Numbered from the stretch's first letter, positions 11,879-30,314 are shown. The stretch: DNA of 64,000 bases from Gemmatimonadales bacterium (GCA_036265815.1 DATAOI010000087.1:6849-70848), one strand, 5' to 3'. The notes: generated from the sequence alone by a model not told the origin. Program-made: numbers and translations.

Positions 11879-14128
11879 ATGGCTGACCGGACCTCGTGCC
11901 GCGAGCTGACGCCGAGTGTGCCGATACTCACGGTCATCGCGGCCGCCGCGGTCCTGGCGTCGTGGACGGGAACGCTTCCGGGTCGGTCGGTCCCCATCTA
12001 CGGTCCGCTGGTCCAGGGGTTGTTCTGGGCGGGGCTCTGTGCGGGGCTGGCGCTGGCCTATGGCGCAGTGGCTCCCGATCAGGGGGGCGCTCTGCGCCGC
12101 GTGCTTCCGAGGGTTGGTGCCTGTCTGCTGCTCGCCCTCCTGGCGACTCACCTCTCGAGGCTGCTGCTCGGTGCGTTCATCGGTCGCGGGGTGTGGCAGA
12201 GGTTCTTCTACCTGGAGTGGCTGGTGCCTCCAGCGTGCGCCGCCCTCGCATGCGCGGCCCTGATGCCTCGGGAGACCAGGGCCATTTACCGCGCCGCCCG
12301 CGGCAGCCCCAGGGCAGCCTCGCTGCTCGCGCTCCTCGTGCTCCTCGTCTCCGCGGGTGTCCTCACGGCCGCCGCGGATCTGACATTCGAATGGGGAGGA
12401 GTCGACGCCCGCCTGAGGCGCGAGGTCGTGATGGTGGATGCCTGGGTCACCAATACCCTGCTGCTGTTCAGCGCGCTGGTGCTGGTGTTCGCGGTCACCC
12501 GGAGAGTGGCCATCGCACTCCTGCTGGTGGCGCCGTCGTTCCTCCTGCTGGACCTCGCGACGATCGCCAAGATCGAGTACATGCATTCGGCGGTGCAGCC
12601 GCTCGACGTGCTCAGGGTGGCCGAGTTCGTGCCGCTCTTCCGCCGATTCTTCGGCACGACGGTCCTCCTCATGATCGTTGTCGCTGCCGGACTCTGGGTC
12701 GTGGCACTCGTGGCAGCGCACCGAACCGAGCCATGGCGATTGTCGCTGCCGCGTCGCCTGCTGCTCGGCGTCGCGTCGCTGGTCGCCCTCATCACACTTC
12801 CGCTGGTCTTCTACCTGGCGCCCACTCAGCCGCTGGCCGGCCGCCTGCTCCTGCTGGTCGGAGCCCCCGGCGATCTCCACCGCGAGAAAGCGCGAGCGAA
12901 CGGGTTGTTGTTGTCGTTCGTCTCCGAGATCCCAGCGCTGCTGGTGCCGAGCCCGGTGGGTTACTCACCCGAATCGGTTGCCACGGCGATGGGCCGGACC
13001 TGGGGCACCGGATCTTCGGTGCAGCGCCCCCCTGGGCACGTGAACCTGATTCTCTATCTGGTCGAATCCTTCATGGACCCGGATGATCTCGGCCTGCACT
13101 ACACCAGCGATCCCATTCCCAATGTCCGGGCCCTCGGCAAGACCCACATCTACGGACACGGGATCGTCCCCGAGCGCTTCGGCGGCTCGGCCAATACCGA
13201 GTTCGAGCTCCTCACGGGGATGACGATGAGCTTCCTGCCGATCGGAAGCCTCCCGTTCAAGCAGCACATTCGGCATCCGATGCCGTCGCTTCCGCGCGCC
13301 CTCGCCGATCTGGGCTACGCGACCACCGCGATCCAGGCCGACGCCAAGTACTACTACAATCGGGAGCGGGTGTACGACCTGCTGGGCTTTCATCATGTCG
13401 TGTGGCTCAACGACATGCCGGGGGTGGAGCGCGCGGCCCGGCCAGGCTGGCCCTCCGACAACGCGGTGGTCCAATCCGTCATTCAAGCCAGTCGTGGCCC
13501 TCGTCCATTTTTCGTGTTCGCCTTCCCCTCCTCGACCCACTCTCCCTACAACTCCGGGACGTACCGCAGCTCCGATCTGGGCGTGCTCGGGGCGAAGTCG
13601 GACGACCCGATGGGCGAGGTGAAGGAGTACATCAACGCGATTCGGGAGGCGGACCGGGCGATCGGGACTCTGGTCGAGTACTTCCGCGGCCAGCGGGACT
13701 CCACCATCATCGCGATCCTCGGCGATCACATGGCCCCGCTTTCGGGTAACGCGCTTCGCCCCCTGTTCGCGCAGTTGGCCGGGCGGTCCGAGGCCGAACA
13801 GGCCCGCAGAACCCGCCGGGGGCCCCTCGTCGTGTGGGCAAATTTCCAGCTCCCGCGCGAGGAAACCGAGCTGAGCGTCAACGCGCTTCCCGCCTATCTC
13901 CTCCAGACGATGCGCATACCCCCGCCAGGCTTCCTCGGGGTGGGCGATCGGGTCCGCCGCAGGATCCCCGTGCTGGGGCGCTACATGCGGGGAACCGATG
14001 GAGAGGTCTGGGACTGGGAGTCCCTGCCCCGGGAAGAGCGGACCCTGCTGGAGGACTACCGGCTCCTTCAGTACGATCTTCTCCTGGGACGGCAGTATGC
14101 GCTGCGGGAGAACGGGGCGGCCCCCTGA
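11879..14128 (+). CDS. LTA-synthase / phosphoglycerol-transferase family protein (polytopic N-terminus + sulfatase-fold domain)
   Basis: About 330 aa of hydrophobic helices are followed by NLILYLVESFMDP, GGSANTEFELLTGM, FAFPSSTHSPY and ILGDHMAP. Confidence 0.8.
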   Translation: MADRTSCRELTPSVPILTVIAAAAVLASWTGTLPGRSVPIYGPLVQGLFWAGLCAGLALAYGAVAPDQGGALRRVLPRVGACLLLALLATHLSRLLLGAFIGRGVWQRFFYLEWLVPPACAALACAALMPRETRAIYRAARGSPRAASLLALLVLLVSAGVLTAAADLTFEWGGVDARLRREVVMVDAWVTNTLLLFSALVLVFAVTRRVAIALLLVAPSFLLLDLATIAKIEYMHSAVQPLDVLRVAEFVPLFRRFFGTTVLLMIVVAAGLWVVALVAAHRTEPWRLSLPRRLLLGVASLVALITLPLVFYLAPTQPLAGRLLLLVGAPGDLHREKARANGLLLSFVSEIPALLVPSPVGYSPESVATAMGRTWGTGSSVQRPPGHVNLILYLVESFMDPDDLGLHYTSDPIPNVRALGKTHIYGHGIVPERFGGSANTEFELLTGMTMSFLPIGSLPFKQHIRHPMPSLPRALADLGYATTAIQADAKYYYNRERVYDLLGFHHVVWLNDMPGVERAARPGWPSDNAVVQSVIQASRGPRPFFVFAFPSSTHSPYNSGTYRSSDLGVLGAKSDDPMGEVKEYINAIREADRAIGTLVEYFRGQRDSTIIAILGDHMAPLSGNALRPLFAQLAGRSEAEQARRTRRGPLVVWANFQLPREETELSVNALPAYLLQTMRIPPPGFLGVGDRVRRRIPVLGRYMRGTDGEVWDWESLPREERTLLEDYRLLQYDLLLGRQYALRENGAAP

Positions 14129-14159: not shown

Positions 14160-15059
14160 TCATCGCAGCTGGCGGGACTGGCAGGACGGCTCCCCATACC
14201 GGATCCCCATGGGCCGACTCAATCCGTCGGCCAGCGCCCGCAGATCGGGCCGCTCGCGGGGGATGTTTTCGTGCCCCCGTCCATTCGGCTCGATCGTGGC
14301 CGTCCCCGTCTTCGAGATTCCCGGGAACACCTTGACCTGCCCCCGCACCACCTGCCATTGATCGCTGGAGACCGCGAGGCGGGTCTGCTTGAGGTCCGGC
14401 TTGCCCAAGACCGCGAACACCGCCGAAAGGAAGCCGACCGGCCGCACGGAAATGCCCTTCACCTGATCGAACACGAGCATGTCCTCGTACTCCAGCAGCT
14501 TGAATCGGATGACCCGGCTGTCGTACACATCCATTTTGGGCACGGACAGGGTGTCCTTATAGCTGAAATGGGAAGGCGCGCCCGCCGAGTCGGGCCAGAA
14601 GATGGTCACGTCCAGCGCGAGGAGCGGGGCAGGGCCTTCCAGCACCTGTGCCACCACCTGGGGGCCGTAGTCGATCAGCGCATCCTGATGGTGCTCGAAT
14701 CCCGCCCTGGCCGACTCCGACATATCCCCATAGGTCACCCCCGCCGTCTCGAGGTGAGCGCTGAACCAATCGTCCTGCTTGACGATCAATTGGGTGCTCC
14801 CCGGCGACTCCCGCTGCCGCCGCCGGACGAGCGCGAGGAGCGCCTCGGCTCCGAACCGCATCGACGTGGTGGTGCTGGTGAGACTGTAGGCCCCGTGGGT
14901 CCGCATCGCCTCCAGGATCTCCTGCCGGGAGACGCGGTATGGCTCGGCGCACGCTCGGTGGCCCGGCCGGGGAAGGTTCGCGCTGAGCGCAGGCGCAATC
15001 ACCGTCAGCGCGATCGCGGCCGGGTTAGAGAATCGTCGAAGCATCTGCAGGAGTGTCAT
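14160..15059 (-). CDS. Hypothetical exported protein
   Basis: MTLLQMLRRFSNPAAIALTVIAPALSA is a signal peptide, and the remaining composition is protein-like. I recognised no family. The gene is divergent from the BlaI-like gene. Confidence 0.6.
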   Translation of the reverse strand: MTLLQMLRRFSNPAAIALTVIAPALSANLPRPGHRACAEPYRVSRQEILEAMRTHGAYSLTSTTTSMRFGAEALLALVRRRQRESPGSTQLIVKQDDWFSAHLETAGVTYGDMSESARAGFEHHQDALIDYGPQVVAQVLEGPAPLLALDVTIFWPDSAGAPSHFSYKDTLSVPKMDVYDSRVIRFKLLEYEDMLVFDQVKGISVRPVGFLSAVFAVLGKPDLKQTRLAVSSDQWQVVRGQVKVFPGISKTGTATIEPNGRGHENIPRERPDLRALADGLSRPMGIRYGEPSCQSRQLR

Positions 15060-15148
15060 GCATTCTTTGGATGAGCTGGTCGGTGGCCGCCTGGATCCCA
15101 GTTGCGCTGCGTGGCAGCTCCTCAAGGTAGCCAAGTCAGGCGGAGCCC

Positions 15149-15181
15149 TTGACTTTTCCTGGCCTCTGCTGAAATATCAGC
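15149..15181 (+). promoter_or_regulatory. Sigma70-like promoter with overlapping palindromic operator upstream of the BlaI-like gene
   Basis: TTGACT (15149-15154), a 17-nt spacer, then AAATAT (15172-15177). The near-palindrome GCTGAAATATCAGC (15168-15181) covers the -10 box. Confidence 0.4.
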
Positions 15182-15222
15182 ACAGCGTCACCGTTCATAC
15201 TCTCAGGTCCAAGGCCACCGCC

Positions 15223-15624
15223 ATGCCCCAGCGCCCCCCTGTCGAAGACCTCAGCCGCCGCGAGCGGCAGGTGATGGAGATCCTGCATCGGCGGGGCGAG
15301 TCCACCGTCACCGAGATCATGCAGAGCCTTCCCGACCCGCCCAGCTATTCCGCGGTCCGCTCCATCCTGCGGATCCTGGGGGAGAAGAAGCTGATCTCCC
15401 ACAGGGAGGACGGGCCCCGGTACGTCTACCTGACGGCCCGTCCGACCGACAAGGCCCGGGATGACGTCCTCGCGCACGTCGTGCGCACCTATTTTGCCGG
15501 CTCGACCGAGCAGGCGGTCACGGCGCTGCTGCGGCTTTCCGACGCCGACCTGGACGAGGCCGAGATCGGCCGGCTCCGGGAGAAGATCCGCCGCGCGCGG
15601 CGGAACGAGAGCGGGAGGTCATGA
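15223..15624 (+). CDS. BlaI/MecI/CopY-family transcriptional repressor
   Basis: The start is MPQRPPVEDLSRRERQVMEIL. The winged-helix region is STVTEIMQSL...YSAVRSILRILGEKKLISHREDGPRYVY. Its stop overlaps the next start (ATGA). Confidence 0.9.
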   Translation: MPQRPPVEDLSRRERQVMEILHRRGESTVTEIMQSLPDPPSYSAVRSILRILGEKKLISHREDGPRYVYLTARPTDKARDDVLAHVVRTYFAGSTEQAVTALLRLSDADLDEAEIGRLREKIRRARRNESGRS

Positions 15625-17585
15625 TGTCGACATCCATTCCAGACCTGCTCTCCTGGGTCACGGCAGCACCATTGGGCCTGTCGATTCTGCTGGTGCTTCT
15701 GAAGGTCACCTGTCTGCTTCTGGCCGCGATCGGCGCCTCGCTCGCAATGTCGCGCGCCTCGGCGGGCGCCCGGCATCTGGTCTGGGTCGTGGTGCTTGGC
15801 GCGCTCCTTGTCCTCCCCGCACTCGCCATGTGGGCCCCCCTCCCGGTCCGGATGCTTCCCCAGTCCGTATCACCGACAATTGCATCGAGCATGGCAGGAG
15901 CGCTTGTCGGCCCCGAAATCACCCGTTCGCTGCGGCAGCAGAGCAGCGCTGCTCCTGAAGCCGCGGGCCCCGCCGCCTCGTCCGCATCGCGGTCTCGCGC
16001 CGCGATCGGGCCGTCGTTCGGGCTCGGGACCGTACTGTTGCTCGGCTGGGTGCTGGGCGCTCTCGCGCTGATCCTGAGGCTCGCCCACGGCGCGTACGCT
16101 GTGCGGCGCATCCTCCGCCGGGCCGAGCCGCTGGAGCACCCGGACTGGCAGACGCCGTTGTACCAGGTCGCCGATCGCCTGGGCGTGCCCGTCATTCCGC
16201 GGCTGGTCCGCAGCGAGGATGTGAAGATGCCCTTTGCGAGCGGCCTTATTGCTCCCGCCGTCGTGCTTCCCGCCGAATGCGAGCAGTGGAGCGCCGAGCG
16301 GCGGAGCGCCGTGCTGGTGCACGAGCTGGGGCACGTCCGTCGGCGCGACCTGGCCGGTCACACGATCGGCCGGATCGCCTGCGCCCTCTATTGGTTTCAC
16401 CCGCTGGTGTGGACGGCCGCCCGGCGGCTCCGCACCGAGAGCGAGCGGGCCTGCGACGACCTGGCGCTGGTCCTCGGTGCCCGGCCCAGCGACTACGCCG
16501 AGCATCTGCTGGACCTGGTGACGGGCGTGCGCGATCACTACACGCCGTCGCTCGCCCTTGCGATGGCGCACCGAAAGGAGTTCGAGGGACGCATGCTGGC
16601 TATTCTCGACCCCGCGCTCCGTCGCAAGGGGCCGAATCGGAGGCAGACCGCCGTGATCGTCGGTGCGCTCGCCATCCTCGCCTCTTTCGTCGGTGCAGCG
16701 ACGCCGGTGCCACGCACCGCGTCTCACTCGCTCCCCTCGCATGCTGAAGCGCCACGCAGCGCGCCGGTTCAACCGGTCCAGCCACCGCCGGACGCTGCCC
16801 CCCAACCCGCGGCAATCGCGATCCCGACCCGAGCCTCGCCAGCCGTCACCGCCCGCGAGGAGCCCGGCGACGACAGGGCGGCGCTGCTCGCCAGGACACT
16901 CCGCACCGATACGAGCGCCCCGGTTCGGCGGGTGGCCGCGTGGGGACTCCAGCGGTACGTCGAGGTCGATGTCGCGATCGAGGCCCTCGCCTCCGCGGCC
17001 GGGACCGATGCCGACGCGGAGGTGCGTGAGATGGCGGTGTGGGCCCTGGCCGATGCACGACCGGGCTCGACCGTCGTGCTGGCGGCCCTGGCCAAGGCCG
17101 TCCGGCTGGACCGGGACCCGAAGGTTCGCGCGACGGCAGTGTGGGCACTGGGCTCGATCGGCGACGAAAACGCCGTGGAGACCTTGACGGGCGTCCTCAG
17201 GAGCCCCGATCCCACGCTACGGGAGGTCGCGGCCTGGTCGATCGGCTCCTGCGAGCCGAGCCGGGCGCCGGCCGCGCTGTCGAGCGCGCTGTCGGACCGA
17301 GATCGCAACGTGCGCGAATCGGTGGCCTGGGCGCTCTACACGATCGGGGATCCCCGGACGGCCGGCGCCATCGATTCCGCGCTTCGGCGCGAGCAGGACC
17401 CCGAGGTGCAGCACGGCCTCATCCGGGCGCTCGGTGCCGTGGGGGAGGGCTCGGTGGAGGCCTTCCAGCGACTCGTATCATCCCCGGACGCCGAAGTGCG
17501 AGGGATGGCCGTGGCCGCGCTGGCCGGCGGAGACGCCTCCGGTCCCTGGCCCTGGCCCCGCCCGGAGCCTCGGCCGTTTCCGTGA
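15621..17585 (+). CDS. BlaR1-like M56 zinc-metallopeptidase signal transducer with C-terminal HEAT-repeat domain
   Basis: Several TM helices, HELGH at 16320-16334, and a fourth TM helix (TAVIVGALAILASFVGAA). These are followed by a Pro-rich linker and about 7 HEAT-like units (VRxxAxWAL). The tail is GPWPWPRPEPRPFP. Confidence 0.85.
   Translation: MMSTSIPDLLSWVTAAPLGLSILLVLLKVTCLLLAAIGASLAMSRASAGARHLVWVVVLGALLVLPALAMWAPLPVRMLPQSVSPTIASSMAGALVGPEITRSLRQQSSAAPEAAGPAASSASRSRAAIGPSFGLGTVLLLGWVLGALALILRLAHGAYAVRRILRRAEPLEHPDWQTPLYQVADRLGVPVIPRLVRSEDVKMPFASGLIAPAVVLPAECEQWSAERRSAVLVHELGHVRRRDLAGHTIGRIACALYWFHPLVWTAARRLRTESERACDDLALVLGARPSDYAEHLLDLVTGVRDHYTPSLALAMAHRKEFEGRMLAILDPALRRKGPNRRQTAVIVGALAILASFVGAATPVPRTASHSLPSHAEAPRSAPVQPVQPPPDAAPQPAAIAIPTRASPAVTAREEPGDDRAALLARTLRTDTSAPVRRVAAWGLQRYVEVDVAIEALASAAGTDADAEVREMAVWALADARPGSTVVLAALAKAVRLDRDPKVRATAVWALGSIGDENAVETLTGVLRSPDPTLREVAAWSIGSCEPSRAPAALSSALSDRDRNVRESVAWALYTIGDPRTAGAIDSALRREQDPEVQHGLIRALGAVGEGSVEAFQRLVSSPDAEVRGMAVAALAGGDASGPWPWPRPEPRPFP
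16881..17528 (+). repeat. Tandem HEAT-like (PBS-lyase type) coding repeats, about 31 aa period
   Basis: Recurrent units: VRRVAAWGL, VREMAVWAL, VRATAVWALGSIGD, LREVAAWSIG, VRESVAWALYTIGD, VRGMAVAALAG. Confidence 0.7.
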
Positions 17586-17708
17586 TCGGGCGCGGCTGAC
17601 GCGAACGGGCGCGGCGTGACGCAGGGTGTCGCGCTTCGCCCGTTGCTTCGGCCCATGAGTGCTGAAATTTCAACATCACATCGATCATCCTCCTCTGTGG
17701 AGCAGACC

Positions 17709-19052
17709 ATGATACGGATGACCAGCCTCGTCCTCGCCGCGACCGCGATGTCACTCGGCGGATCGACGGGTGCACCCGCGCCCAGCCTGCGGAAGAGTTC
17801 ACCAGAGATTCGCGAGCTGCTCGCGGGCGCCCTGGGCGCGCCGCGCGCCCTGTGCGCGCTTGCCGCAACCGCGGTCGGCAACAACCGCTGGGGCGAGCGC
17901 GACGCGCCGGCGACGCCGCTCGCCCGCCCGAAGACACCAGACTCCCGCGGTACCCGCGAGACGCAGGGCACGCCGGAGGACGTGCGGTTCCTGCTGGAGA
18001 GTCTCTCGACTGATGACCCCTGCGTCCGCGAGCTCGCGGTGCGGCTGCTCGCCAATCAGGCGAGCGATCTGGCGGCGCCCGGTCTGCTGCAGCGGCTCGG
18101 GTCGGCCGATTCGGTAATGCGTACCCTCGCCGCGCTGGGGCTGGGATTGCTGCAGCCGAAGGGCGCGGTTGAGCCGCTGGTGCGAGCCGCCCATGACCCA
18201 TCTACCGGCGCGAGGGCGGATGCGCTCTGGGCGCTTGGGCGGATCGGCGATGGGCGCGCCGTGCGTCCGGCGACCGCCGCCCTGGGTGACGGCGCGCCCG
18301 TGGTGCGAGAAGCGGCGGCGGAGGCGTTAGGCCAGCTCGATTCCACGAGCGCGGTCCCGGCGCTGGTGCGCCTCCTCCACGACGACGCGGTGGCCTCCGT
18401 CCGGCGCACCGCGGCCTGGGCGCTGGGTCAGCTCGAGGCCAAATCGGGCGCCGACGGGCTCGCCCTGGCGCTGCGGGGCGATCGGGATGCCGGCGTACGC
18501 GAGATGAGCGCCTGGGCCTTGGCCAGCATCGAGGCGCGATCCGCCACACCGGTCCTGCTGCGGGCGGCACAGGCGGACAGCGACGCCGCCGTACGGGAGA
18601 CGGCGGTTTGGGCCCTCGGCGAGCTGGGCGATGCGTCGGCGGCCGAAGGCCTGGGTCAACTCCTCACGAAGGAGCGGAACGCGGAAGTGCGGAGAACCGC
18701 GGCGTGGGCCCTGGGTCAGCTCGACGTCCACACCGCGCCGAAGGCGCTGATCGGCGCCCTGAGCGACGCCGATGCCGAGCTGCGGGTCAAGGCAGCGTGG
18801 GCGCTCTCCGAGATCGCGGATGGCGCAGCCGTCCCCGCGCTCCGGGCCTCGTTGTCACGGGAGCAGGATGCCGATGCGCGGAAAGCCGAGGTCCGGGCGC
18901 TGATCCATTCGGGCGAACGCTCCGAGCAGTTGACCGAGCTCCTGCAGTCGAAGGATCCCGAGGTGCGTGAGGCGGCGATCCGGGGCATTGCGGGACACGG
19001 GGAGTCCGATCCGTGGCCCTGGCCCGAGCCTCGGCCCCGCCCGTTCCCCTGA
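17709..19052 (+). CDS. Secreted HEAT-repeat protein
   Basis: The start is MIRMTSLVLAATAMSLGGSTG, which is signal-peptide-like. About 10 HEAT-like units follow (VRRTAAWALGQL occurs twice; also VREMSAWALASI, VRETAVWALGELGD, LRVKAAWALSEI). The tail is DPWPWPEPRPRPFP. Confidence 0.8.
   Translation: MIRMTSLVLAATAMSLGGSTGAPAPSLRKSSPEIRELLAGALGAPRALCALAATAVGNNRWGERDAPATPLARPKTPDSRGTRETQGTPEDVRFLLESLSTDDPCVRELAVRLLANQASDLAAPGLLQRLGSADSVMRTLAALGLGLLQPKGAVEPLVRAAHDPSTGARADALWALGRIGDGRAVRPATAALGDGAPVVREAAAEALGQLDSTSAVPALVRLLHDDAVASVRRTAAWALGQLEAKSGADGLALALRGDRDAGVREMSAWALASIEARSATPVLLRAAQADSDAAVRETAVWALGELGDASAAEGLGQLLTKERNAEVRRTAAWALGQLDVHTAPKALIGALSDADAELRVKAAWALSEIADGAAVPALRASLSREQDADARKAEVRALIHSGERSEQLTELLQSKDPEVREAAIRGIAGHGESDPWPWPEPRPRPFP
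17982..18995 (+). repeat. Tandem HEAT-like coding repeats, about 31 aa / 93 nt period
   Basis: Repetition is visible at the DNA level, e.g. 18400-18440 versus 18690-18725 (gcggc.tgggc.ctgggtcagctcga). Confidence 0.7.
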
Positions 19053-19124
19053 GCGAATCTGGCGGGGCGATTTCGTCCAACCTTTTCGGCACAACCCGTG
19101 TCCAACCCGTGAACCTTCCCGCGG

Positions 19125-21671
19125 GTGTCTCACATGACTGCACTGCTCGGCGTTCTGTTGGGTCTTCAGGCGCAGGTGATGACGATCCCACGGCCGCGCC
19201 CGGCAACCACCGTCGTCCGGGCCACGCGCACGGCGGTGGCCCCCGTGCTCGACGGCCGGGATGACGACGTCGTGTGGCGGACCGCCCCGCCCGTCGACCA
19301 GTTCCTCGAGGCCAAGCCCAGCGAAGGCGTGGCACCGCGACTGCGGACGGAGGCGCGGGTGGCGTACGACGAGCACAACCTTTACGTGTTCGTCCGCGCA
19401 TTCGATCCCCACCCTGACAGCATCGTCAGCCTGCTCGCCCGCCGGGATGACCTGCCCGCCTCCGATTACATCAGCGTGATGCTCGACCCCTACCACGACC
19501 GGCGGACCGGGTACGAGTTCTCGGTGAACCCCGCCGGGGTCAAGGCGGACTACGCGATCTATAACGATGGCGACGAGGACGTCGCCTGGGACGCGGTATG
19601 GGACGCCGCGACCCGGATCGATTCGCTTGGCTGGACCGCGGAGTATCGGATCCCGCTCTCCCAGCTGCACTACTCGTCCAAGGGAAGCGGCACGTTCGGC
19701 CTGCTCCTCTGGCGGGTCATCCAGCGCCATACCGCGACCGTCACCTGGCCACTCTATCGCACCTCGCGCTCGGGCCTCACCTCCCAGTTCGGCGAGCTGA
19801 CCGGGCTGGACGGACTGGGCAGCCCGGGACACGCGGAGATCACGCCGTACGTCATCACCAAGAGCCAGCCGGACGCCGGCGCGGCCGACCCGGAGCAGAA
19901 TCAGGAGGTCTCTCTCGGCGGCGATCTGAAATACCGGCTCGCCTCGAATCTGCTGCTCAACGCCACCGTCAATCCCGATTTCGGCCAGGTCGAGGCCGAT
20001 CCGTCGGAGCTCAACCTCAGCGCCTTCGAGACCTTCTTCAGCGAGCGACGGCCGTTCTTCGTGGAGGGAAAGGGCCTCTTCACCTTCACCGTCAATTGCG
20101 TCGTGGTGGTCGACTGCAATACCGGGGAAGGGTTGTTCTATTCCCGCCGGATCGGGCGCTCGCCGCAGTTGGCCGACACCTATGGAGACGAGGCGTCCGC
20201 CACCTCGACCAAGATCCTGGGGGCCGGTAAGGTCACCGGACGCCTGCCGAACGGTTTCTCACTGGGGGCCCTCGACGCGGTGACCGATCATGTGGCGGGG
20301 CCGGGAGGCACCACGCTCGAGCCCGCGACCAATTACGGCGTGATCCGCGCCAATCAGGACTTCCACGGCGGCGATGCCAGCCTCGGGTTCATCGTAACGG
20401 GAGTGAACCGGTCGCTCGATGCCACCAGTGCGCCCTATCTCCATCGGAGCGCGTACGCCGGAGGAATCGATGGGCGGTGGCGGTTCCACGGCCGGTTCGA
20501 GATCTCCGGCTCGCTGGACCTGAGCCGGGTCGCGGGCGATGCGGCGGCGATCGCTCGCACCCAGCAGGACCCGGTCCATCTGTACCAGCGTCCGGACGGC
20601 CCGCTGACCTTCGATTCGACCCGGACCTCGTTGAGCGGCATCAATCAGGAGATCCGTTTCGCCAAGGTGGGCGGCAAGCGGCTGCACTTCGAGACGGCCT
20701 ACCAGCGGCGGACGCCGGGGTTCGAGGTCAACGACCTCGGGTTCCTCCGCCAGGCCGACCAGCAGGAGTGGACCAGCTGGGCGAACCTGGCGTTCAATCA
20801 TCCCAACCGGATTTTTCAGCAGCTCCGCTGGAATTTCAACAACTGGGAGCACTGGACCGCCGAGGGACTGCCGACCGAGCGGGCGTTCAACACCAATGTC
20901 CATGTCCAGTTCACCAACCGTTGGTGGCTGCACGTGGGGGGCACCATCGGCCAGCTCGGTGCTACCTATTGCGACCGTTGCGCGCGGGGTGGTCCGGCGG
21001 TCCGGCAGGACCCGTATCTCTCGCCCTGGATCACCATCCAGGGCGATGACCGCCGGCCGCTGGTGCCCTCCGTGTCGGCCAACTACACCAGGGGCGATCA
21101 GGGCCGCTCCGAGACGATCGACCTCTCGCCGACGCTCGATCTCAAGGTGTCCACTCGCTTTACCACCTCGCTCAGCGCGGAGTACAACCACAACCGGAAC
21201 GACCTGCAGTACTTCGACACGTTCACCGACCCGGCCGGCGGGCAGCACTACACCTTCGCGCATCTGCAGCAGAGGACCCTGAGCTTCACCTGGCGGCTGG
21301 GCTACACCTTCACGCCCACCACCTCGCTCCAGGTCTACGCTTCGCCGTTCGTCTCCAAGGGCACCTACACCGACATCCGTGAAGTGGCGGACGCGCGGGC
21401 GAGCGAGTACTCGGGGCGCTACCGGCCCTATACTGACCCCGCCGTCGCCGAGGATGACAGCGGGTTCAACTTCCAGCAGTTCCGCTCCAACGTGGTGTTC
21501 CGCTGGGAGTATCGCCCGGGGTCGACGCTGTTCCTGGTCTGGAGCCAGGGACGGCAGGCGGATTCGCCGGTCGAGGGCGCCGAGTCCTTCCGCGGCGACC
21601 TCGGCGACCTGTTCGGCCGGCGGGCACGCGATACGTTCCTGGTGAAGGTGTCGTACTGGTTCACCCGCTGA
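19125..21671 (+). CDS. CBM9-like / DUF5916-type large beta-rich protein (probable outer-membrane associated)
   Basis: The N-terminus, APVLDGRDDDVVWRTAPPVDQFLE...ARVAYDEHNLYVFVRAFD...DYISVMLDPYHDRRTGYEFSVNPAGV, has the family-9 carbohydrate-binding/DOMON-like pattern. The rest alternates in beta-strand style and ends in FLVKVSYWFTR. Confidence 0.7.
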   Translation: MSHMTALLGVLLGLQAQVMTIPRPRPATTVVRATRTAVAPVLDGRDDDVVWRTAPPVDQFLEAKPSEGVAPRLRTEARVAYDEHNLYVFVRAFDPHPDSIVSLLARRDDLPASDYISVMLDPYHDRRTGYEFSVNPAGVKADYAIYNDGDEDVAWDAVWDAATRIDSLGWTAEYRIPLSQLHYSSKGSGTFGLLLWRVIQRHTATVTWPLYRTSRSGLTSQFGELTGLDGLGSPGHAEITPYVITKSQPDAGAADPEQNQEVSLGGDLKYRLASNLLLNATVNPDFGQVEADPSELNLSAFETFFSERRPFFVEGKGLFTFTVNCVVVVDCNTGEGLFYSRRIGRSPQLADTYGDEASATSTKILGAGKVTGRLPNGFSLGALDAVTDHVAGPGGTTLEPATNYGVIRANQDFHGGDASLGFIVTGVNRSLDATSAPYLHRSAYAGGIDGRWRFHGRFEISGSLDLSRVAGDAAAIARTQQDPVHLYQRPDGPLTFDSTRTSLSGINQEIRFAKVGGKRLHFETAYQRRTPGFEVNDLGFLRQADQQEWTSWANLAFNHPNRIFQQLRWNFNNWEHWTAEGLPTERAFNTNVHVQFTNRWWLHVGGTIGQLGATYCDRCARGGPAVRQDPYLSPWITIQGDDRRPLVPSVSANYTRGDQGRSETIDLSPTLDLKVSTRFTTSLSAEYNHNRNDLQYFDTFTDPAGGQHYTFAHLQQRTLSFTWRLGYTFTPTTSLQVYASPFVSKGTYTDIREVADARASEYSGRYRPYTDPAVAEDDSGFNFQQFRSNVVFRWEYRPGSTLFLVWSQGRQADSPVEGAESFRGDLGDLFGRRARDTFLVKVSYWFTR

Positions 21672-21965: not shown

Positions 21966-22976
21966 ATGTCACCCCGCCCGCCGCTCATTCTCCCGCTCCT
22001 ACTCAGCCTGTTCGCCGTCCTCTCCTGCGGTGAGGACACGACGCCGACCCAGCCCGGATCGACGGACGATCAGATCTCCGCCGCCACGGCATCGACCGCG
22101 TCGAACAGCTGGACCGACAAGGCTGCCCGTCCCGGAGAGTCCCTTTATGGGTTTGTCGGTGGAGTGGCTCCCAACTCGGCCGGGCAATCGATCCTCTACA
22201 CCTTCGGCGGTGTCAATGACGAAGGGGGCAGCGGGTTTCCCATCCAGGCCTACAACGCGGCGACGAACAGCTGGTCGACGAAGACGTCGGAGGTTTACAT
22301 GTACGACTTGAACGGCGTCGCCAAGATCGGGAGCAAGCTGTATTTCTCCGGTGGCCGCTCACACGACGGCACCGGGGACACACCGAGCGTGCCCACCACG
22401 TGGGCCTACGACTACACCAACGACCGCCTGACCCGGAAAGCCGACATGCCGAAGGCCACCTCCGAGGGCGTCACCGGGGTCATCGACGGCAAGATGTACG
22501 TGCTTCCTGGCTTCTGTGATGGTACGGGCTGGCCCTTCCCGGGCTACTGTGACCACTCGGCGATCCGCCAGTTGTTCCGCTACGATCCGGTGAACAACAA
22601 GTGGGGCGCCCTGCGGTCATGCCCCCACTATCATCCCTTCGGAGCGGGCGGGGTCATCAACGGGAAGTTCTATGTCGCAGGCGGCCTTGGCACCGCAGCG
22701 CTCGACGTCTTCGACCCTGCGACCGACAGTTGGAGTCCTCTCGCCCCGGTCCCCACCGCCGGGCGGGCCATCGGGACGATCCTCGGCCAGAAGCTCTACG
22801 TGATCACGGCAAGCGATAGCCATACCTACGCTTACGATCCCGGCACGAACACCTGGAAGGCCAGAGCTCCCTATCCTTCGGCAGGGCTGCCTCTGGCGCT
22901 CGGCCGGGTGGCACTGGATGGACGCAACTACCTGGTCGGGGTGGACGGCGCAGGCTCCCACCTGTACACGCCGTAG
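21966..22976 (+). CDS. Kelch-repeat lipoprotein
   Basis: The lipobox is LLLSLFAVLSCGED. Repeated blades: KLYFSGG, GKMYVLPG, GKFYVAGG, QKLYVITA. An SD sequence (GAGGAGGA) precedes the ATG. Confidence 0.8.
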   Translation: MSPRPPLILPLLLSLFAVLSCGEDTTPTQPGSTDDQISAATASTASNSWTDKAARPGESLYGFVGGVAPNSAGQSILYTFGGVNDEGGSGFPIQAYNAATNSWSTKTSEVYMYDLNGVAKIGSKLYFSGGRSHDGTGDTPSVPTTWAYDYTNDRLTRKADMPKATSEGVTGVIDGKMYVLPGFCDGTGWPFPGYCDHSAIRQLFRYDPVNNKWGALRSCPHYHPFGAGGVINGKFYVAGGLGTAALDVFDPATDSWSPLAPVPTAGRAIGTILGQKLYVITASDSHTYAYDPGTNTWKARAPYPSAGLPLALGRVALDGRNYLVGVDGAGSHLYTP

Positions 22977-22979
22977 CCG

Positions 22980-25900
22980 TCACTCCCTGGACGAGACCAA
23001 GGCCTTGCCCTGGAGCTCGCGCGATTCCGCTGGCGAGTCCTGATCCCCACTCCACCGGCCGTGCGCCGGCCGGTGGAGCGGATCGGCACCGATGGTGCCG
23101 ACCAGCGAGGTCACATACTCGGGAGCGCTCATCCGCTCGAGCTCCGCGCGCGCGTGCTCGAGACGCTTGGCGATGCCGAGGCGCACCGCCTCGTCGCGAT
23201 GGCCCGCGCGCGCCAGGAATTGGGTCAAGCTCCGCGCGTGACGCTCCCAGAGCGCCACATCCCGCTGCTGCTTGATGGCCAGACGCTCGTGGTACCAGTC
23301 GCTGGCGAGCAGCGCTTCGCGGGTGAACAGCCTCCGGATATCGGGATGTCCCGCGTCTTTCCCTTGGTAGTGCCCGTGGGCCATGATGTGGAGCAACGCT
23401 CTGAGCGGAGGGCAGGCGTCCTCGATCGTACCATCCTTGAAATACGCCGCGGCCACCCGCTGCTGGGCCTCCACGATGTTGTCGATCCCGTCGGTGAAGA
23501 CCGCCCGGTCCTGCAGCTCGGGCTGCAGGATCTCCTCGGTGAATACCGTGCTGGGATTGTCGAACACCCGCCCGAAGTAGGTGTGCACGAACTTGGCCGT
23601 GATGCGGTAGCCGAGGCGGCTGGCGAGCACCTTCCGGCCAGCGGATTCGTAGTCCTCGAGCTTCTCCAGGTGTCCGGCCTCGATCAGCCGCTTCGGGTCA
23701 CGCTCGTGGGGGAACAGCCGGCACCAGATCTCGGGAATGAGCAGGCTGATGTCGTGGTCCACCCGGTAGCGCGGCCCGATGAATCCCGCCGCCGAGCTGA
23801 AGCCGGCGTAGCCGGTGAGCAGCATCGCGACCAGCGCGTTGTTGAGATCGGCGGTGGCTGCGAGCGCGTTGAATGGGCCCTTGGTGAGGGCCCCCTCCGA
23901 CCCCGCCCCCGTGGTGCTCGGCGACGTTCCTGTCAGCGAGCACACGTAGTCCATGAACAGCTCCGGCAATTCCTGGTAGTGGATGGGTCCGTACACGCAA
24001 AGCGGACGGACGCCGTCTTCCGGCCGATTGTTCCGCCGCCCGGACAGTACGCTGATCACCGGGAACAGCACGGGCGCGTGGAGCGGGAGCCGCCGATTGA
24101 GCCGCGCGCCCATTTCCGCCACGTAGCGATCGCGCGGACGGGCGAGGTCGGGCCTGAGCTGCAGGTAGCGCGGATTCTTGGTGGGCTTGCCGCCGATCAG
24201 CCGGGGCTGGGCCGAGCAGATGGAGAAACCGTCGTCGGCGAGCGCCGCGTTCGCGGCGACATGCTCGCGCATCGGTGGGGTGAAGGCGTCATGCACCGCC
24301 ACGTCCTCTACGATCCGCTGCGCGTCCGCTCGGGTGAGCGGCTGGAAGTTCGAGCAGAAGAGGCCCGGCCCCGCCATGTCCTCCTCGGTCTGCCGGTCCA
24401 GGCCGGGATGGATGGCGTCGTCCGGGCGCTGGAACAGCCGCACCTCGCAGTTCTCCGCCAGCTTGAGGCTGGGATGGCCGTCGTACTCGCCCGGGAGCCC
24501 GATCAGGCGGCGTGCCGGGACCACCACCGCGGCGGTGATATCGTCCTCCATCTGCACCTTGTCGGCCGCGACGAAGTCCTGCCGCAGCTTGTAGGTGCGC
24601 CAGGCCCCGTGCTCCTCGCGGCCGATCCGGAGATAGTTGGCCACCAGTCGCCGGCCCTCGTACTTGAGCTCGTGCCCCGGCGCGCCGTTGATGATGTCGA
24701 CGCTGAAGTAACGCTGCCAATCATCCCCCCACTCGGGCCGGTGAAAGCGCTTGATGACGAAGACCAGCGCGCGCACATGATTGGGAATGCTCTCGAGCCA
24801 CGCGTTGTACTCCGGCGTGAACTCGGCCGGATTGGGGGTGAGCAGCTTGACCACCGAGCCGAGCGAGCGGTCGGGGGAGAGGATCGGCCGTGAAGCTCCG
24901 CGCCCGTCCGCCGCGCGAAGCTCGGACAGGCGTACCTCCTCGTAGTCCCGCTCGAAGATCGCCTGGACCTGCGCCATGTCGTCGTCGAAACTTCGTACGT
25001 AGAAGGAGCCCGGCAGCACCGCGTCGACCAGGCTCTTGCTGATCTCCGACTTGCCCCCACCCGATACGGTGCACGGCTTGTGGCAGAATGCGCCCTCCGG
25101 CACGGTTCCGATCAGCCGCCAGCTCGGCGCCGCGCGATGCTTGGCCATGCGGACCTTGTAGCCGCTCGGGTGGATGTAAATCCGCCCGGGCAGAAGCTTG
25201 AGGTGCTGCTCCTTCCCCTGGCTCATCCAGGTGATGTCCTGGCGGGGGACGTCGATCACCATGTCTTCCGGCATGTAGTGGATCTCGGGATACTGCACGT
25301 CGGTCGCGTACCCCGAGTCGTGGAACCTGGCGCGCTGCCCCAGGAGCCCGCGCACTTCGGCGAAGCGGTGACTGGCGCTCACGATCCTCACGAGATCCGG
25401 GACGAACCGGTCGCCCAGGTTGAAGGTCGGAAAGGCCAGCACCCCGCCCGCGTGCTCCTCCTCCGCCAGGCCGAAGAGGTTGGCGCTGTAGCCGATCTGG
25501 GTCTTGATCTCCTTCTTGCAGTACCCGAAATAGTTGTCGGCGAGGATGGTGACCATCACGCCCTGGGTTCCGCGCGAGGTGACCTTGAATGGCCTGCCCT
25601 CGTTGTAGAGCTCGCCCTCGTCGGCCCAGCACATGCCCGCCGCGCGCTCGGCCTCGGTGGCGCGGCTCACGTGCGGCAGGCCCAGGTCCGTCTTCCGAAG
25701 CCGGGTGAGGTGGGGCGCCAGGATCACGCAGCCGCTGTGGCCGGTCCAGCCGTCCACGTCGAGCGCGGCGTCGTTGGCCGGCAGGTACGGATCGCCGGCG
25801 TTGCCGAAGATGCTCTCCACGAAATCCAGGTTCGAGACCAGCCCGCCGGGCGCGAAGAAGCGCACCTCCATCCGCTTTTCCGGGGCCACCCTGGGGACCG

Positions 25901-26534
25901 CCGGACACACCAGCGGCCGCAGCAGGAGCGAGACCACGGTCTCGACCGGATCGGACCAGTTGATGGTGAAGGGGAGGCGAGTCAACTGGGCCGGAGGCCG
26001 CAGGGCCTCCTGCAGCAGGCGAACGAATGCGCCGAGCGGCACCCGGGTCTTGTCCGCGGGAATGGGAAGTCCACCCTCGGCCACGTGGAACACGCCCTGG
26101 GTGGTGCGGCGATCGTTGACCGGATTGTGCAGCACGCCGTTGTCCAGCCGGTAACTCGAGACCAGCTCGTTGTGCCACGCGTTCCCGTCGATCGGCAAGG
26201 ACAGCTCTCGGGCGAGTCCGTAATGATCGAGGATGAGGGTCTCGGCGGGCAGCCGTACCGGCTCGGCAAAACCGGCGGCCGCCAACAGCGCGTCGATGTA
26301 GTCCTGGATCCGCCGGTCGGCCGGGCACAGGTGCTCGGAGAGCAGCCGGGTCTGCTCCCGATAGCGGGCGAAGAGATCGCCCGCAAGCTGGAGCACGTTC
26401 TCGTCACCGGTATCCGCCGGGATCTGGACGCCCATGGCCGCGAGCTTGAGCAGGATGGAGCTGACGGCAGCGTGGCGGTCCGGGAGCCAGACCGACCCGT
26501 CGGGGCGGAGGCCTACTGCACGCTCGAGCTCCAT
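22980..26534 (-). CDS. Large (1184 aa) conserved protein; possible PPi-dependent phosphoenolpyruvate carboxykinase family (tentative)
   Basis: The reading frame is uninterrupted and protein-like. ILADNYFGYCKKEIKTQ (about 25512-25532) resembles the Y-G-G-x-x-K-K box of ATP/GTP PEPCKs. TVSGGGKSEISKS (about 25044-25064) resembles the PEPCK P-loop (GxSGxGK[ST]). The size fits the ~130 kDa PPi-PEPCKs. Confidence 0.4.
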   Translation of the reverse strand: MELERAVGLRPDGSVWLPDRHAAVSSILLKLAAMGVQIPADTGDENVLQLAGDLFARYREQTRLLSEHLCPADRRIQDYIDALLAAAGFAEPVRLPAETLILDHYGLARELSLPIDGNAWHNELVSSYRLDNGVLHNPVNDRRTTQGVFHVAEGGLPIPADKTRVPLGAFVRLLQEALRPPAQLTRLPFTINWSDPVETVVSLLLRPLVCPAVPRVAPEKRMEVRFFAPGGLVSNLDFVESIFGNAGDPYLPANDAALDVDGWTGHSGCVILAPHLTRLRKTDLGLPHVSRATEAERAAGMCWADEGELYNEGRPFKVTSRGTQGVMVTILADNYFGYCKKEIKTQIGYSANLFGLAEEEHAGGVLAFPTFNLGDRFVPDLVRIVSASHRFAEVRGLLGQRARFHDSGYATDVQYPEIHYMPEDMVIDVPRQDITWMSQGKEQHLKLLPGRIYIHPSGYKVRMAKHRAAPSWRLIGTVPEGAFCHKPCTVSGGGKSEISKSLVDAVLPGSFYVRSFDDDMAQVQAIFERDYEEVRLSELRAADGRGASRPILSPDRSLGSVVKLLTPNPAEFTPEYNAWLESIPNHVRALVFVIKRFHRPEWGDDWQRYFSVDIINGAPGHELKYEGRRLVANYLRIGREEHGAWRTYKLRQDFVAADKVQMEDDITAAVVVPARRLIGLPGEYDGHPSLKLAENCEVRLFQRPDDAIHPGLDRQTEEDMAGPGLFCSNFQPLTRADAQRIVEDVAVHDAFTPPMREHVAANAALADDGFSICSAQPRLIGGKPTKNPRYLQLRPDLARPRDRYVAEMGARLNRRLPLHAPVLFPVISVLSGRRNNRPEDGVRPLCVYGPIHYQELPELFMDYVCSLTGTSPSTTGAGSEGALTKGPFNALAATADLNNALVAMLLTGYAGFSSAAGFIGPRYRVDHDISLLIPEIWCRLFPHERDPKRLIEAGHLEKLEDYESAGRKVLASRLGYRITAKFVHTYFGRVFDNPSTVFTEEILQPELQDRAVFTDGIDNIVEAQQRVAAAYFKDGTIEDACPPLRALLHIMAHGHYQGKDAGHPDIRRLFTREALLASDWYHERLAIKQQRDVALWERHARSLTQFLARAGHRDEAVRLGIAKRLEHARAELERMSAPEYVTSLVGTIGADPLHRPAHGRWSGDQDSPAESRELQGKALVSSRE

Positions 26535-30275: not shown

Positions 30276-30314
30276 GGCCGGCTCGCCTCGGGCGAGCCGG
30301 CCGTTTCGTCGTTT
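30276..30314. terminator. Hairpin terminator shared by convergent csp and prolyl oligopeptidase genes
   Basis: GGCCGGCTCGC (30276-30286) / GCGAGCCGGCC (30292-30302), followed by GTTTCGTCGTTT. A smaller hairpin AACCGCGA/TCGCGGTT lies at 30255-30272. Confidence 0.6.

Follow-up and report, generated by a model that had tools for sequence, protein, structure and literature searches.

A conserved BlaI/BlaR1-type gene module of Gemmatimonadota with a HEAT-repeat array in the sensor position and a predicted exported paralogue of that array

The DNA analysed here is a stretch of 64,000 nucleotides from a Gemmatimonadales bacterium (GCA_036265815.1, DATAOI010000087.1:6849–70848), called the window in what follows, with positions counted from its first letter. 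Between positions 15,149 and 21,671, four open reading frames (ORFs) follow each other on the plus strand, encoding a BlaI/MecI-family repressor, an M56-family membrane protease with a carboxy-terminal HEAT-repeat array (M56-HEAT), a second HEAT-repeat protein, predicted to be exported and soluble, and a CBM9-like/DUF5916 protein. The stop codon of the repressor gene overlaps the start codon of the M56-HEAT gene in an ATGA. The first three genes are a conserved core, while the DUF5916/CBM9 protein is a clade-specific recurrent neighbour and not a core member. BlaR1 and MecR1 are the textbook protease-coupled transmembrane sensors, understood for one ligand class, the beta-lactams; they signal via an extracellular carboxy-terminal sensor, with proteolysis of the repressor (PMC7593790), and BlaIR pairs with roles other than in beta-lactam responses exist (bioRxiv 10.64898/2026.08.03.742534). 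In the window, the same chassis carries a solenoid of peptide- or polymer-binding type as its sensor and a secreted copy of this solenoid as what appears to be its regulated output. The system is real and conserved and has not been characterised; protease and repressor place it in the M56/BlaI kind, and it has no penicillin-binding sensor of the sort that marks BlaR1. New with respect to the BlaR1 plan are the co-regulated paralogue of the sensor, a ladder of tryptophans along the HEAT repeats and a carboxy-terminal tail specific to the family. The coordinates of all features are collected in Table 1.

For comparison, 80 related loci were retrieved, out of at least 586 stretches encoding an M56-HEAT relative that were found when one genome per species was scanned. 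Nearly all 80 belong to Gemmatimonadales or Gemmatimonadaceae, the exceptions being a single Eisenbacteria chromosome, a short contig that binning had assigned to Verrucomicrobiia and two metagenome-assembled genomes (MAGs) with no label beyond 'bacterium'. The repressor gene always lies directly upstream of the M56 gene in these loci, with a homologue of 47–85% identity in 77 of the 80. Directly after the M56 gene comes the soluble HEAT gene in 50 of the 54 loci with enough downstream sequence for this count, and the order repressor, M56-HEAT, HEAT is found over a range of 37–73% sensor identity. The DUF5916 gene, for which 42 loci could be counted, directly follows the HEAT gene in nine; in the other 33, other genes are found there, which are mutually unrelated. 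The original prediction had taken all four genes as one co-conserved unit, and this has to be reduced to the first three. In a wider protein search, at least 2466 M56-HEAT relatives were matched at E < 1e-5. The best 120 of these all combine M56 and HEAT, at 42–71% identity; the named ones come from Gemmatimonadota MAGs, and all names are automatic, 'M56 family metallopeptidase' and 'HEAT repeat domain-containing protein' being examples. A comparable spread is seen for the soluble HEAT protein (2454 matches). Within the searchable literature, nothing relevant was found on M56-HEAT proteins, BlaR1-like systems in Gemmatimonadota, the PWPWP tail motif or periplasmic HEAT anti-sigma factors, in agreement with the earlier statement that no characterised example was known.

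Table 1. Features of the module and its neighbour in the window (aa, amino acids; MFE, minimum free energy; AF2, AlphaFold2; pLDDT, predicted local distance difference test score).
Feature	Position	Strand	Basis
-35 hexamer TTGACT of the blaI promoter	15149–15154	+	sequence read
Candidate operator 1, TGCTGAAATATCAGCA, exact 6-4-6 dyad	15167–15182	+	pattern match
Putative -10 hexamer AAATAT, 17 nt after the -35	15172–15177	+	A/T centre of operator 1
BlaI/MecI-family winged-helix repressor, 133 aa	15223–15624	+	PF03965, E 1.9e-22
M56-HEAT protease, 654 aa	15621–17585	+	PF05569, E 1.4e-31 (residues 42–327); HEAT_2, E 7e-46
M56 protease/transducer module, residues 1–364	15621–16712	+	PF05569, conserved motifs
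HELGH zinc motif, residues 234–238	16320–16334	+	aligned
Pro/Ala-rich linker, predicted periplasmic, residues 365–412	16713–16856	+	pLDDT below 50, gappy alignment
Sensor, predicted periplasmic, seven alphaRep/PBS-type HEAT repeats	16857–17540	+	HEAT_2, E 7e-46; AF2
Sensor carboxy-terminal tail, GPWPWPRPEPRPFP-COOH	17541–17582	+	homologue alignment
GC-rich hairpin 3' of the M56-HEAT stop codon	17586–17659	+	MFE -45.8 kcal/mol, z = -4.0
Candidate operator 2, TGCTGAAATTTCAACA, one mismatch, 5' of the soluble HEAT gene	17660–17675	+	pattern match
HEAT protein, predicted exported, 447 aa from ATG 17709	17709–19052	+	HEAT_2, E 3e-52
Part of this protein before the tail, with signal peptide and 12 HEAT repeats	17709–19007	+	HEAT_2, E 3e-52; AF2
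Soluble HEAT carboxy-terminal tail, DPWPWPEPRPRPFP-COOH	19008–19049	+	homologue alignment
CBM9-like and DUF5916 beta-rich protein, 848 aa	19125–21671	+	DUF5916, E 3.7e-65; CBM9_1, E 1e-6; OMP_b-brl, E 7e-7

The promoter, the palindrome, the four ORFs, the HELGH motif and the ATGA overlap that were described originally were all recovered from the sequence where they had been placed, and the matches to PF03965, PF05569 and HEAT_2 bear out the proposal of a BlaI/BlaR1-type pair with HEAT repeats in place of the penicillin-binding sensor. In the protease module, residues H234, E235 and H238 (the HExxH motif) and E275 and D279 (ExxxD) are invariant among 107 M56-HEAT homologues, as is much of the cytoplasmic domain. 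By hydropathy, four transmembrane (TM) helices are located at approximately residues 19–37, 53–71, 134–152 and 345–363, and corresponding helices are modelled by AF2. The loop between the third and the fourth helix (residues 153–344), which contains the protease, has 29 lysines and arginines, and the charges flanking the TM helices obey the positive-inside rule. From hydropathy, lysine and arginine counts of the flanks and the AF2 helices, the predicted topology has the amino-terminus outside, the protease in the cytoplasm and the carboxy-terminus outside, as in BlaR1. The HEAT array, which the original prediction had taken to be extracytoplasmic, is thus not placed in the cytoplasm by this check.

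Assignment of the protease to family M56 is made from the Pfam and NCBIfam profiles together with the invariant motifs, because fold comparison and direct searches gave little. The NCBIfam profile NF000326 (blaR1_generic) matches with an E-value of 1.6e-24, over residues 133–354 only and with 86 bits against a cut-off of 400; when the four proteins were scanned with NCBIfam, the scores stayed far from the BlaR1 and BlaI equivalog cut-offs, and no other model gave any of them a name. In a phmmer search of the Protein Data Bank (PDB) with the amino-terminal 370 residues, the best match is Staphylococcus aureus BlaR1 (PDB entry 8exs), a weak one (E 0.3), in which HELGH aligns on HEYAH. When the full-length AF2 model was compared to the PDB with Foldseek, HEAT and armadillo proteins were the only matches, giving no independent support for a BlaR1 fold.

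The fourth TM helix is followed by the linker, the length and sequence of which vary and which shows no conservation when homologues are aligned. In the AF2 model of the whole protein (mean pLDDT 80), the linker and the loop between the second and third TM helices are disordered, while residues 413–636 form 14 helices, or seven repeats, with pLDDT values above 95. The closest known structures to this array are those of alphaRep binders (TM-score of about 0.87 normalised to the target, Foldseek E 6e-9, 35% identity). A periplasmic location of the array fits both the topology prediction and its paralogy to an exported protein. Beta-lactam sensing was rejected as a function, no match to a transpeptidase or beta-lactamase family being found and the region being HEAT_2. 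A function of the PBS-lyase/NblB type was likewise rejected, as the likeness is at the level of the repeat only and the CpcE and NblB scores are far below their cut-offs.

The soluble HEAT protein lies in a maximal ORF of positions 17616–19052, with its likely start at ATG 17709, which is preceded by GGAG and begins the signal-peptide-like sequence MIRMTSLVLAATAMSLGG. A signal-peptide-like amino-terminus is present in all 65 soluble homologues that were compared, several of them with a lipobox, and the protein fits an exported one. The AF2 model (pLDDT 87, predicted TM-score 0.84) contains 24 helices, making 12 repeats; the seven or so repeats originally counted in the sensor stand, the ten or so counted in the exported protein do not. 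Residues 219–429 align colinearly with residues 423–636 of the sensor (42% identity, E 3e-37), which makes the two arrays paralogous, as had been proposed. Cysteines 49 and 105 are invariant among the soluble homologues. In six of these (P0131, P0133, P0136, P0137, P0138 and P0139) a lipobox (…VLGC or …VGGC) replaces the plain signal peptide, and in lipobox-bearing species the protein is probably a lipoprotein.

Two hallmarks of the family that are absent from the original prediction are a ladder of tryptophans and a carboxy-terminal tail. The ladder is present in both arrays. In the sensor these are W441, W474, W508, W539 and W570, in five consecutive repeats and invariant in the 107 sequences; in the soluble protein they are W174, W237, W269, W301, W333 and W364, in six repeats and again invariant. 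Each is located at the AA-x-ALG position, where the residue differs between repeats in the aligned artificial alphaRep binders, and which is one of the randomised sites on the concave binding face of alphaRep proteins. The ladder is not intrinsic to this type of repeat, because the related M56-HEAT protein of locus L052 has none of these tryptophans. Natural alphaRep-like binders with a fixed tryptophan ladder may be of interest to protein engineers.

Both proteins also end in a tail of 14 residues with the shared motif PWPWPxPxPRPFP-COOH, which has the form PWPWPxP(E/Q)PRPFP in the sensor and PWPWPxPRPRPFP in the soluble protein. The sensor tail is found in 97 of the 107 homologues, in 83 of them exactly at the carboxy-terminus, with conservation that is complete, or 90% or higher, at nearly all of its positions. 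The soluble tail is present in 65 of 65 homologues, every one of which ends in PRPRP(F)P. Just before the last PRP, most sensors have glutamate or glutamine, and all 65 soluble proteins have arginine. Variant sensor tails are seen in L065, L067 and L068 (…PWPWPWPMPIVR) and in L072 (EPQPRPWPIPAIR). In a six-frame search of 81 loci (1.2 Mb) and in 120 metagenome stretches picked up by a degenerate DNA pattern of the tail, the motif was found on this HEAT family only, apart from a few short low-complexity chance matches. A general carboxy-terminal sorting signal (PEP-CTERM, type IX secretion carboxy-terminal domain or LPXTG-like) was rejected for this reason: the tail occurs on no unrelated cargo, and nothing follows it. 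That the ladder would occur only together with the tail was rejected too, as the distant tail-less relatives of loci L075–L077 retain four to five ladder tryptophans; therefore, the ladder should bind something other than, or besides, the tail.

The repressor belongs to the BlaI/MecI/CopY family, as judged from its sequence, with the amino-terminal winged-helix DNA-binding domain and the carboxy-terminal helical dimerisation domain of that family, the match to PF03965 spanning profile positions 1–114 of 115. A PDB search with the single sequence gave no match; a profile built from 16 family sequences was required, which aligns to residues 4–120 of MecI, its full length (PDB entry 1okr, E 1.5e-6), and also matches the BlaI structures 1p6r and 1sd4 and the Mycobacterium tuberculosis protein 2g9w. 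Where MecI has its scissile bond between N101 and F102, in the dimerisation domain, the aligned residues are A101 and L102, which are invariant or nearly so in the family. A metal sensor of the CopY type was rejected, since the carboxy-terminal cysteines (CxCx4CxC) are absent and TIGR02698 gives 33 bits against a cut-off of 122.

In front of the repressor gene, the palindrome GCTGAAATATCAGC (positions 15168–15181) lies inside the larger dyad TGCTGAAATATCAGCA, with arms of six nucleotides around a centre of four. The window contains one exact copy of the dyad and one copy with a single mismatch, against 0.16 expected. When the pattern TGCTGA-N4-TCAGCA is searched across the loci with up to two mismatches, it is found within 170 nt upstream of blaI in 71 of 74 (8.3 sites per kb) and in the spacer from the M56 stop codon to the start of the HEAT gene in 49 of 53 (2.3 sites per kb); elsewhere there are 53 sites over 1.12 Mb (0.047 per kb). 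The enrichment at the equivalent positions of the 80 loci is thus 50- to 175-fold. In 38 loci two dyads are located exactly 17 nt apart upstream of blaI, while the window has one. The sequence CTTGACA is conserved before the first dyad in related loci, and the 17-nt spacing puts the -10 in the centre of the dyad, which at this position reads AAATAT, AAAATT or AATTTT. This is strong support, of a comparative kind, for the dyad as the putative operator of an autoregulated repressor, as was originally proposed from the palindrome over the -10 box. The position of the operator is thus sustained, while the -10 itself is weak: it fits the sigma-70 consensus at three of six positions, which is why a generic sigma-70 promoter and terminator scan of the window misses the blaI promoter. 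The same scan did not call the intergenic hairpin, and the evidence for promoter and hairpin comes from the comparison with related loci alone.

An observation of practical use concerns annotation. The maximal ORF that starts upstream of the true blaI start translates operator DNA (positions 15058–15222), and amino-termini such as LKYQH, LIFQH and LNYQH (in L004, L009, L021, L036, L056 and others, and in protein P0144) are translated dyads, that is, mis-annotated extensions. Such peptides are a handy marker of the dyad in database ORFs upstream of blaI.

The second dyad is located 45–90 nt past the M56 stop codon in most of the 49 loci that have it, directly behind the hairpin. The hairpin has a median z-score of -2.7 against shuffled sequences in 48 loci and is often terminator-like, a T-run, GCGCCCGTTTTTTTG, coming after it in several of them; that of the window is terminator-like too, with a weak U-tract. 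With a hairpin and an operator copy of its own in 49 of 53 loci, the HEAT gene is not merely the third gene of an operon, as had been assumed. It appears to be a separately repressed output that is shielded from transcription of blaI-M56. In a divergent subclade, two dyads with a distance of 19 nt precede the HEAT gene, about 70–111 nt past the M56 stop codon, with TTGACA in L065, L067 and L068.

The reading towards which we lean, tentatively and at slightly less than an even chance, is that of a three-gene proteolytic module on the BlaI/BlaR1 plan, whose sensor would be activated by a periplasmic ligand and whose soluble paralogue would be derepressed and sequester this ligand. At rest, the repressor would sit on the dyads in the -10 region of the blaI/M56 promoter and, behind the hairpin, before the HEAT gene. 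An extended periplasmic ligand, either a peptide or a polymer, would bind along the tryptophan-lined concave groove of the sensor, and occupancy of the groove would activate the cytoplasmic M56 protease. The repressor would then be cleaved and both promoters would open. The soluble paralogue would accumulate in the periplasm, where it would compete with the sensor for the same ligand; this sequestration might both protect the cell and shut the response off. In the clade of the window, the DUF5916/CBM9 gene would probably ride on the transcript of the HEAT gene. Such a ligand sponge has its parallel in both the bla and the mec system, whose output (beta-lactamase or PBP2a) binds the sensor's own beta-lactam ligand.

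Several points weigh against this reading. The linker of about 50 residues is disordered and of variable length and the extracellular TM2-TM3 loop is unconserved, which leaves the coupling of the groove to the protease unexplained. With A-L in place of the N101-F102 bond of MecI, the repressor may be cleaved elsewhere or with another specificity. Except in L065, L067 and L068, no sigma-70-like -35 is conserved before operator 2 in most loci, and the HEAT gene could instead be transcribed by read-through, under the influence of a roadblock. In the AF2 monomers the placement of the tails is of modest confidence at best (pLDDT 57–71), and simple titration of a ligand leaves the role of the tail unexplained.

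Another arrangement, which we consider unlikely, is a partner switch resembling that of ExoR. The soluble HEAT protein, as a direct periplasmic regulator of the sensor and not a ligand sponge, would associate with the sensor array, for example with the (XP)6 tail of either protein on the ladder of the other, and thereby hold the protease off; the signal would be that the soluble protein, or one of the tails, is lost or degraded, and induced synthesis would reset the system. Both proteins carry the invariant tail, exclusive to the family and differing by E/Q versus R, and the six X-Pro units of the tail compare with five to six tryptophan-bearing repeats. Extended peptides are bound by the grooves of solenoids with this fold, complexes of armadillo and importin proteins with peptides being among the fold matches, and the soluble gene has the same candidate operator before it, as that of a feedback inhibitor would. 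The confidence of the modelled tails is also higher than that of the free linker (pLDDT 41–48). The retention of the ladder in the tail-less L075–L077 makes it independent of the tail, which speaks against the partner switch, and confident docking of the tails is not seen in the AF2 monomers.

A bolder form of the same idea, to which we give quite a low probability, is that the ladder groove and the (X-Pro)6 tail pair up in self-recognition, X-Pro units and tryptophan repeats being in a ratio of about one to one. The sensor and its soluble paralogue would swap tails, with a preference set by the E/Q versus R difference, and the protease would be gated by tail swapping or competition. Such gating might be triggered by Pro-, Trp- or Arg-rich peptides or by proteolytic trimming of the tails. 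If true, this would be a mode of signalling undescribed for BlaR1-type or other bacterial sensors.

It is also rather improbable that the HEAT array is a scaffold or localisation domain that is not gated by a ligand, for instance one whose Trp/Arg-rich tail would keep the protease close to some envelope structure, with the repressor under some other control (a cytoplasmic cue or constitutive turnover) and the soluble HEAT protein a structural or chaperone-like member of the regulon. BlaR homologues that have no sensor do work in mycobacteria and Pseudomonas aeruginosa, and allosteric coupling through a long disordered linker is hard to picture. Peptides rich in tryptophan and arginine can act as interfacial membrane anchors, and the tails could anchor the proteins in this way. 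Set against this are the very strong purifying selection on array, ladder and tail along with the protease, and the tight pairing with a co-regulated paralogue, which would be difficult to account for if the two had no binding function in common.

The proposal that the four genes form an operon acting as a relay across the envelope, with the DUF5916/CBM9 protein as its outer-membrane end, we regard as very unlikely: same-strand genes with short gaps, recurrence of the DUF5916 gene in loci as distant as L009 and L072, the outer-membrane contact made plausible by M56-TonB_C fusions of other phyla and a proline-rich linker that could span the periplasm favour it, while the absence of DUF5916 from this position in most loci, where mutually unrelated genes replace it, the division of the cluster into two units by hairpin and second operator and the lack of a dyad or shared signal in front of DUF5916 oppose it.

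When the module is compared to BlaI/BlaR1 and MecI/MecR1 of S. aureus and Bacillus licheniformis, it is similar in that a PF03965 repressor gene lies beside an M56 protease gene and in that the protease has, here by prediction, four TM helices, a HExxH/ExxxD zinc site in the cytoplasm and a carboxy-terminal sensor that is extracytoplasmic. The bla and mec systems also have in common with it a dyad over the promoter, here a candidate operator that would give autoregulation, and another gene under operator control with a product that would bind the ligand of the sensor. The differences are in the sensor, a HEAT solenoid here and a penicillin-binding, class D beta-lactamase-like domain in BlaR1 and MecR1, so that no acylation chemistry is available here; in the linker, which is long and disordered here; in the A-L pair at the position of the N-F scissile bond; and in the organism, which is diderm, so that its sensor is predicted to be periplasmic. 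Operators of the BlaI/MecI/CopY family are dyads of the TACA/TGTA type, from which the TGCTGA-N4-TCAGCA dyad differs.

The sensor-less BlaIR pairs (M. tuberculosis Rv1845c/Rv1846c, Mycobacterium abscessus BlaIR and P. aeruginosa PvmSR) likewise combine an M56 protein bearing HEXXH/EXXXD with a BlaI-family regulator, without a penicillin-binding role; they have no extracytoplasmic sensor, whereas the proteins described here have a large conserved domain and a co-regulated soluble paralogue. The M56-TonB_C fusions of Bacteroidota and Xanthomonas, such as Bacteroides thetaiotaomicron TonB1 and TonB10, resemble M56-HEAT in joining M56 via a periplasmic linker to an interaction domain that is not a penicillin-binding one, and are uncharacterised as well. 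Their carboxy-terminal TonB_C domain docks on TonB-dependent transporters, and no soluble paralogue or tail is known for them. Proteins with alphaRep/PBS-lyase-type HEAT-like repeats (MTH187, CpcE/F and NblB) have the same 31-residue repeat and are the best matches in sequence and fold; they are cytoplasmic or artificial, while the arrays of the module are predicted to be exported and have tryptophans in five to six consecutive repeats and the (XP)6 tail.

A likeness of logic only is found in the ExoR-ExoS/ChvI system of Sinorhizobium, where a periplasmic alpha-solenoid repeat protein inhibits a membrane sensor and has its own expression controlled by the pathway. In the module, too, a secreted helical-repeat protein would feed back on the pathway by which its own expression is controlled; ExoR is built of Sel1 repeats, has a histidine kinase and not an M56 protease as partner and bears no paralogous relation to the sensor domain. 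The title of a study on periplasmic proteolysis of ExoR appears among the references of PMC7593790.

Gemmatimonadota are a phylum of soil bacteria in which experimental genetics is very scarce, and the two-site operator, the invariant tryptophan ladder and the 14-residue tail are handles that can be mutated or synthesised. The ligand, if found, would reveal an envelope cue monitored by these abundant soil bacteria and would test whether activation of an M56 transducer is possible when no covalent chemistry takes place at its sensor.

The DUF5916 gene itself follows the HEAT gene of the window after 72 nt. No dyad with up to two mismatches and no other shared signal was found before it in the window, and with the short gap this suggests that it is probably co-transcribed with the HEAT gene. 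Its product is probably an outer-membrane protein; as the outer-membrane end of the module in general it does not qualify, because it is adjacent in so few loci. Adjacency is mostly seen in nearer relatives, yet also in the distant L009 and L072, with 35–36% identity between the DUF5916 proteins; L072 lacks a separate HEAT gene, and its DUF5916 gene comes directly after the one for M56. The genes that take its place elsewhere resemble those for an amidohydrolase or S41-like protein, an FtsX-type permease, a kinase, a decarboxylase, an aminopeptidase and others, as read from the sequences by eye.

Other neighbours in the window were rejected as members of the module, as none recurs. In the 10-kb flanks that were compared in the 80 loci, there are no homologues of the upstream 324-aa ORF or of the Kelch, pyrophosphate (PPi)-dependent phosphoenolpyruvate carboxykinase, DUF4142 and prolyl oligopeptidase proteins. 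No Rfam family reaches its gathering score in the window, and no tRNA or tmRNA genes were found in it. The Kelch beta-propeller protein (positions 21966–22976, plus strand) comes directly after the DUF5916 gene, has a lipoprotein-like amino-terminus (…LFAVLSCGED) and is not conserved beside the module. On the minus strand, a 1184-aa ORF (positions 22980–26534) encodes the PPi-dependent phosphoenolpyruvate carboxykinase, with no Pfam match at E < 1e-5 and full-length matches to 6k31 (AiPEPCK) and 8e1u at E = 0. The prolyl oligopeptidase (Peptidase_S9_N and S9; positions 30313–32532, minus strand) has a signal-like amino-terminus and is located 8.6 kb from the module with its X-Pro tails; a link between the two is unsupported, given the lack of homologues near the module. 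Upstream, the divergent 324-aa ORF (positions 14160–15134, minus strand) is coding-like in its third-position GC content (0.84) and has no Pfam or NCBIfam match. Beyond it, two genes upstream of the module with this ORF in between and not conserved with the module, positions 11879–14128 of the plus strand encode a 749-aa polytopic membrane protein that has a carboxy-terminal sulfatase-family domain and shows a weak likeness to LtaS and phosphoethanolamine transferases.

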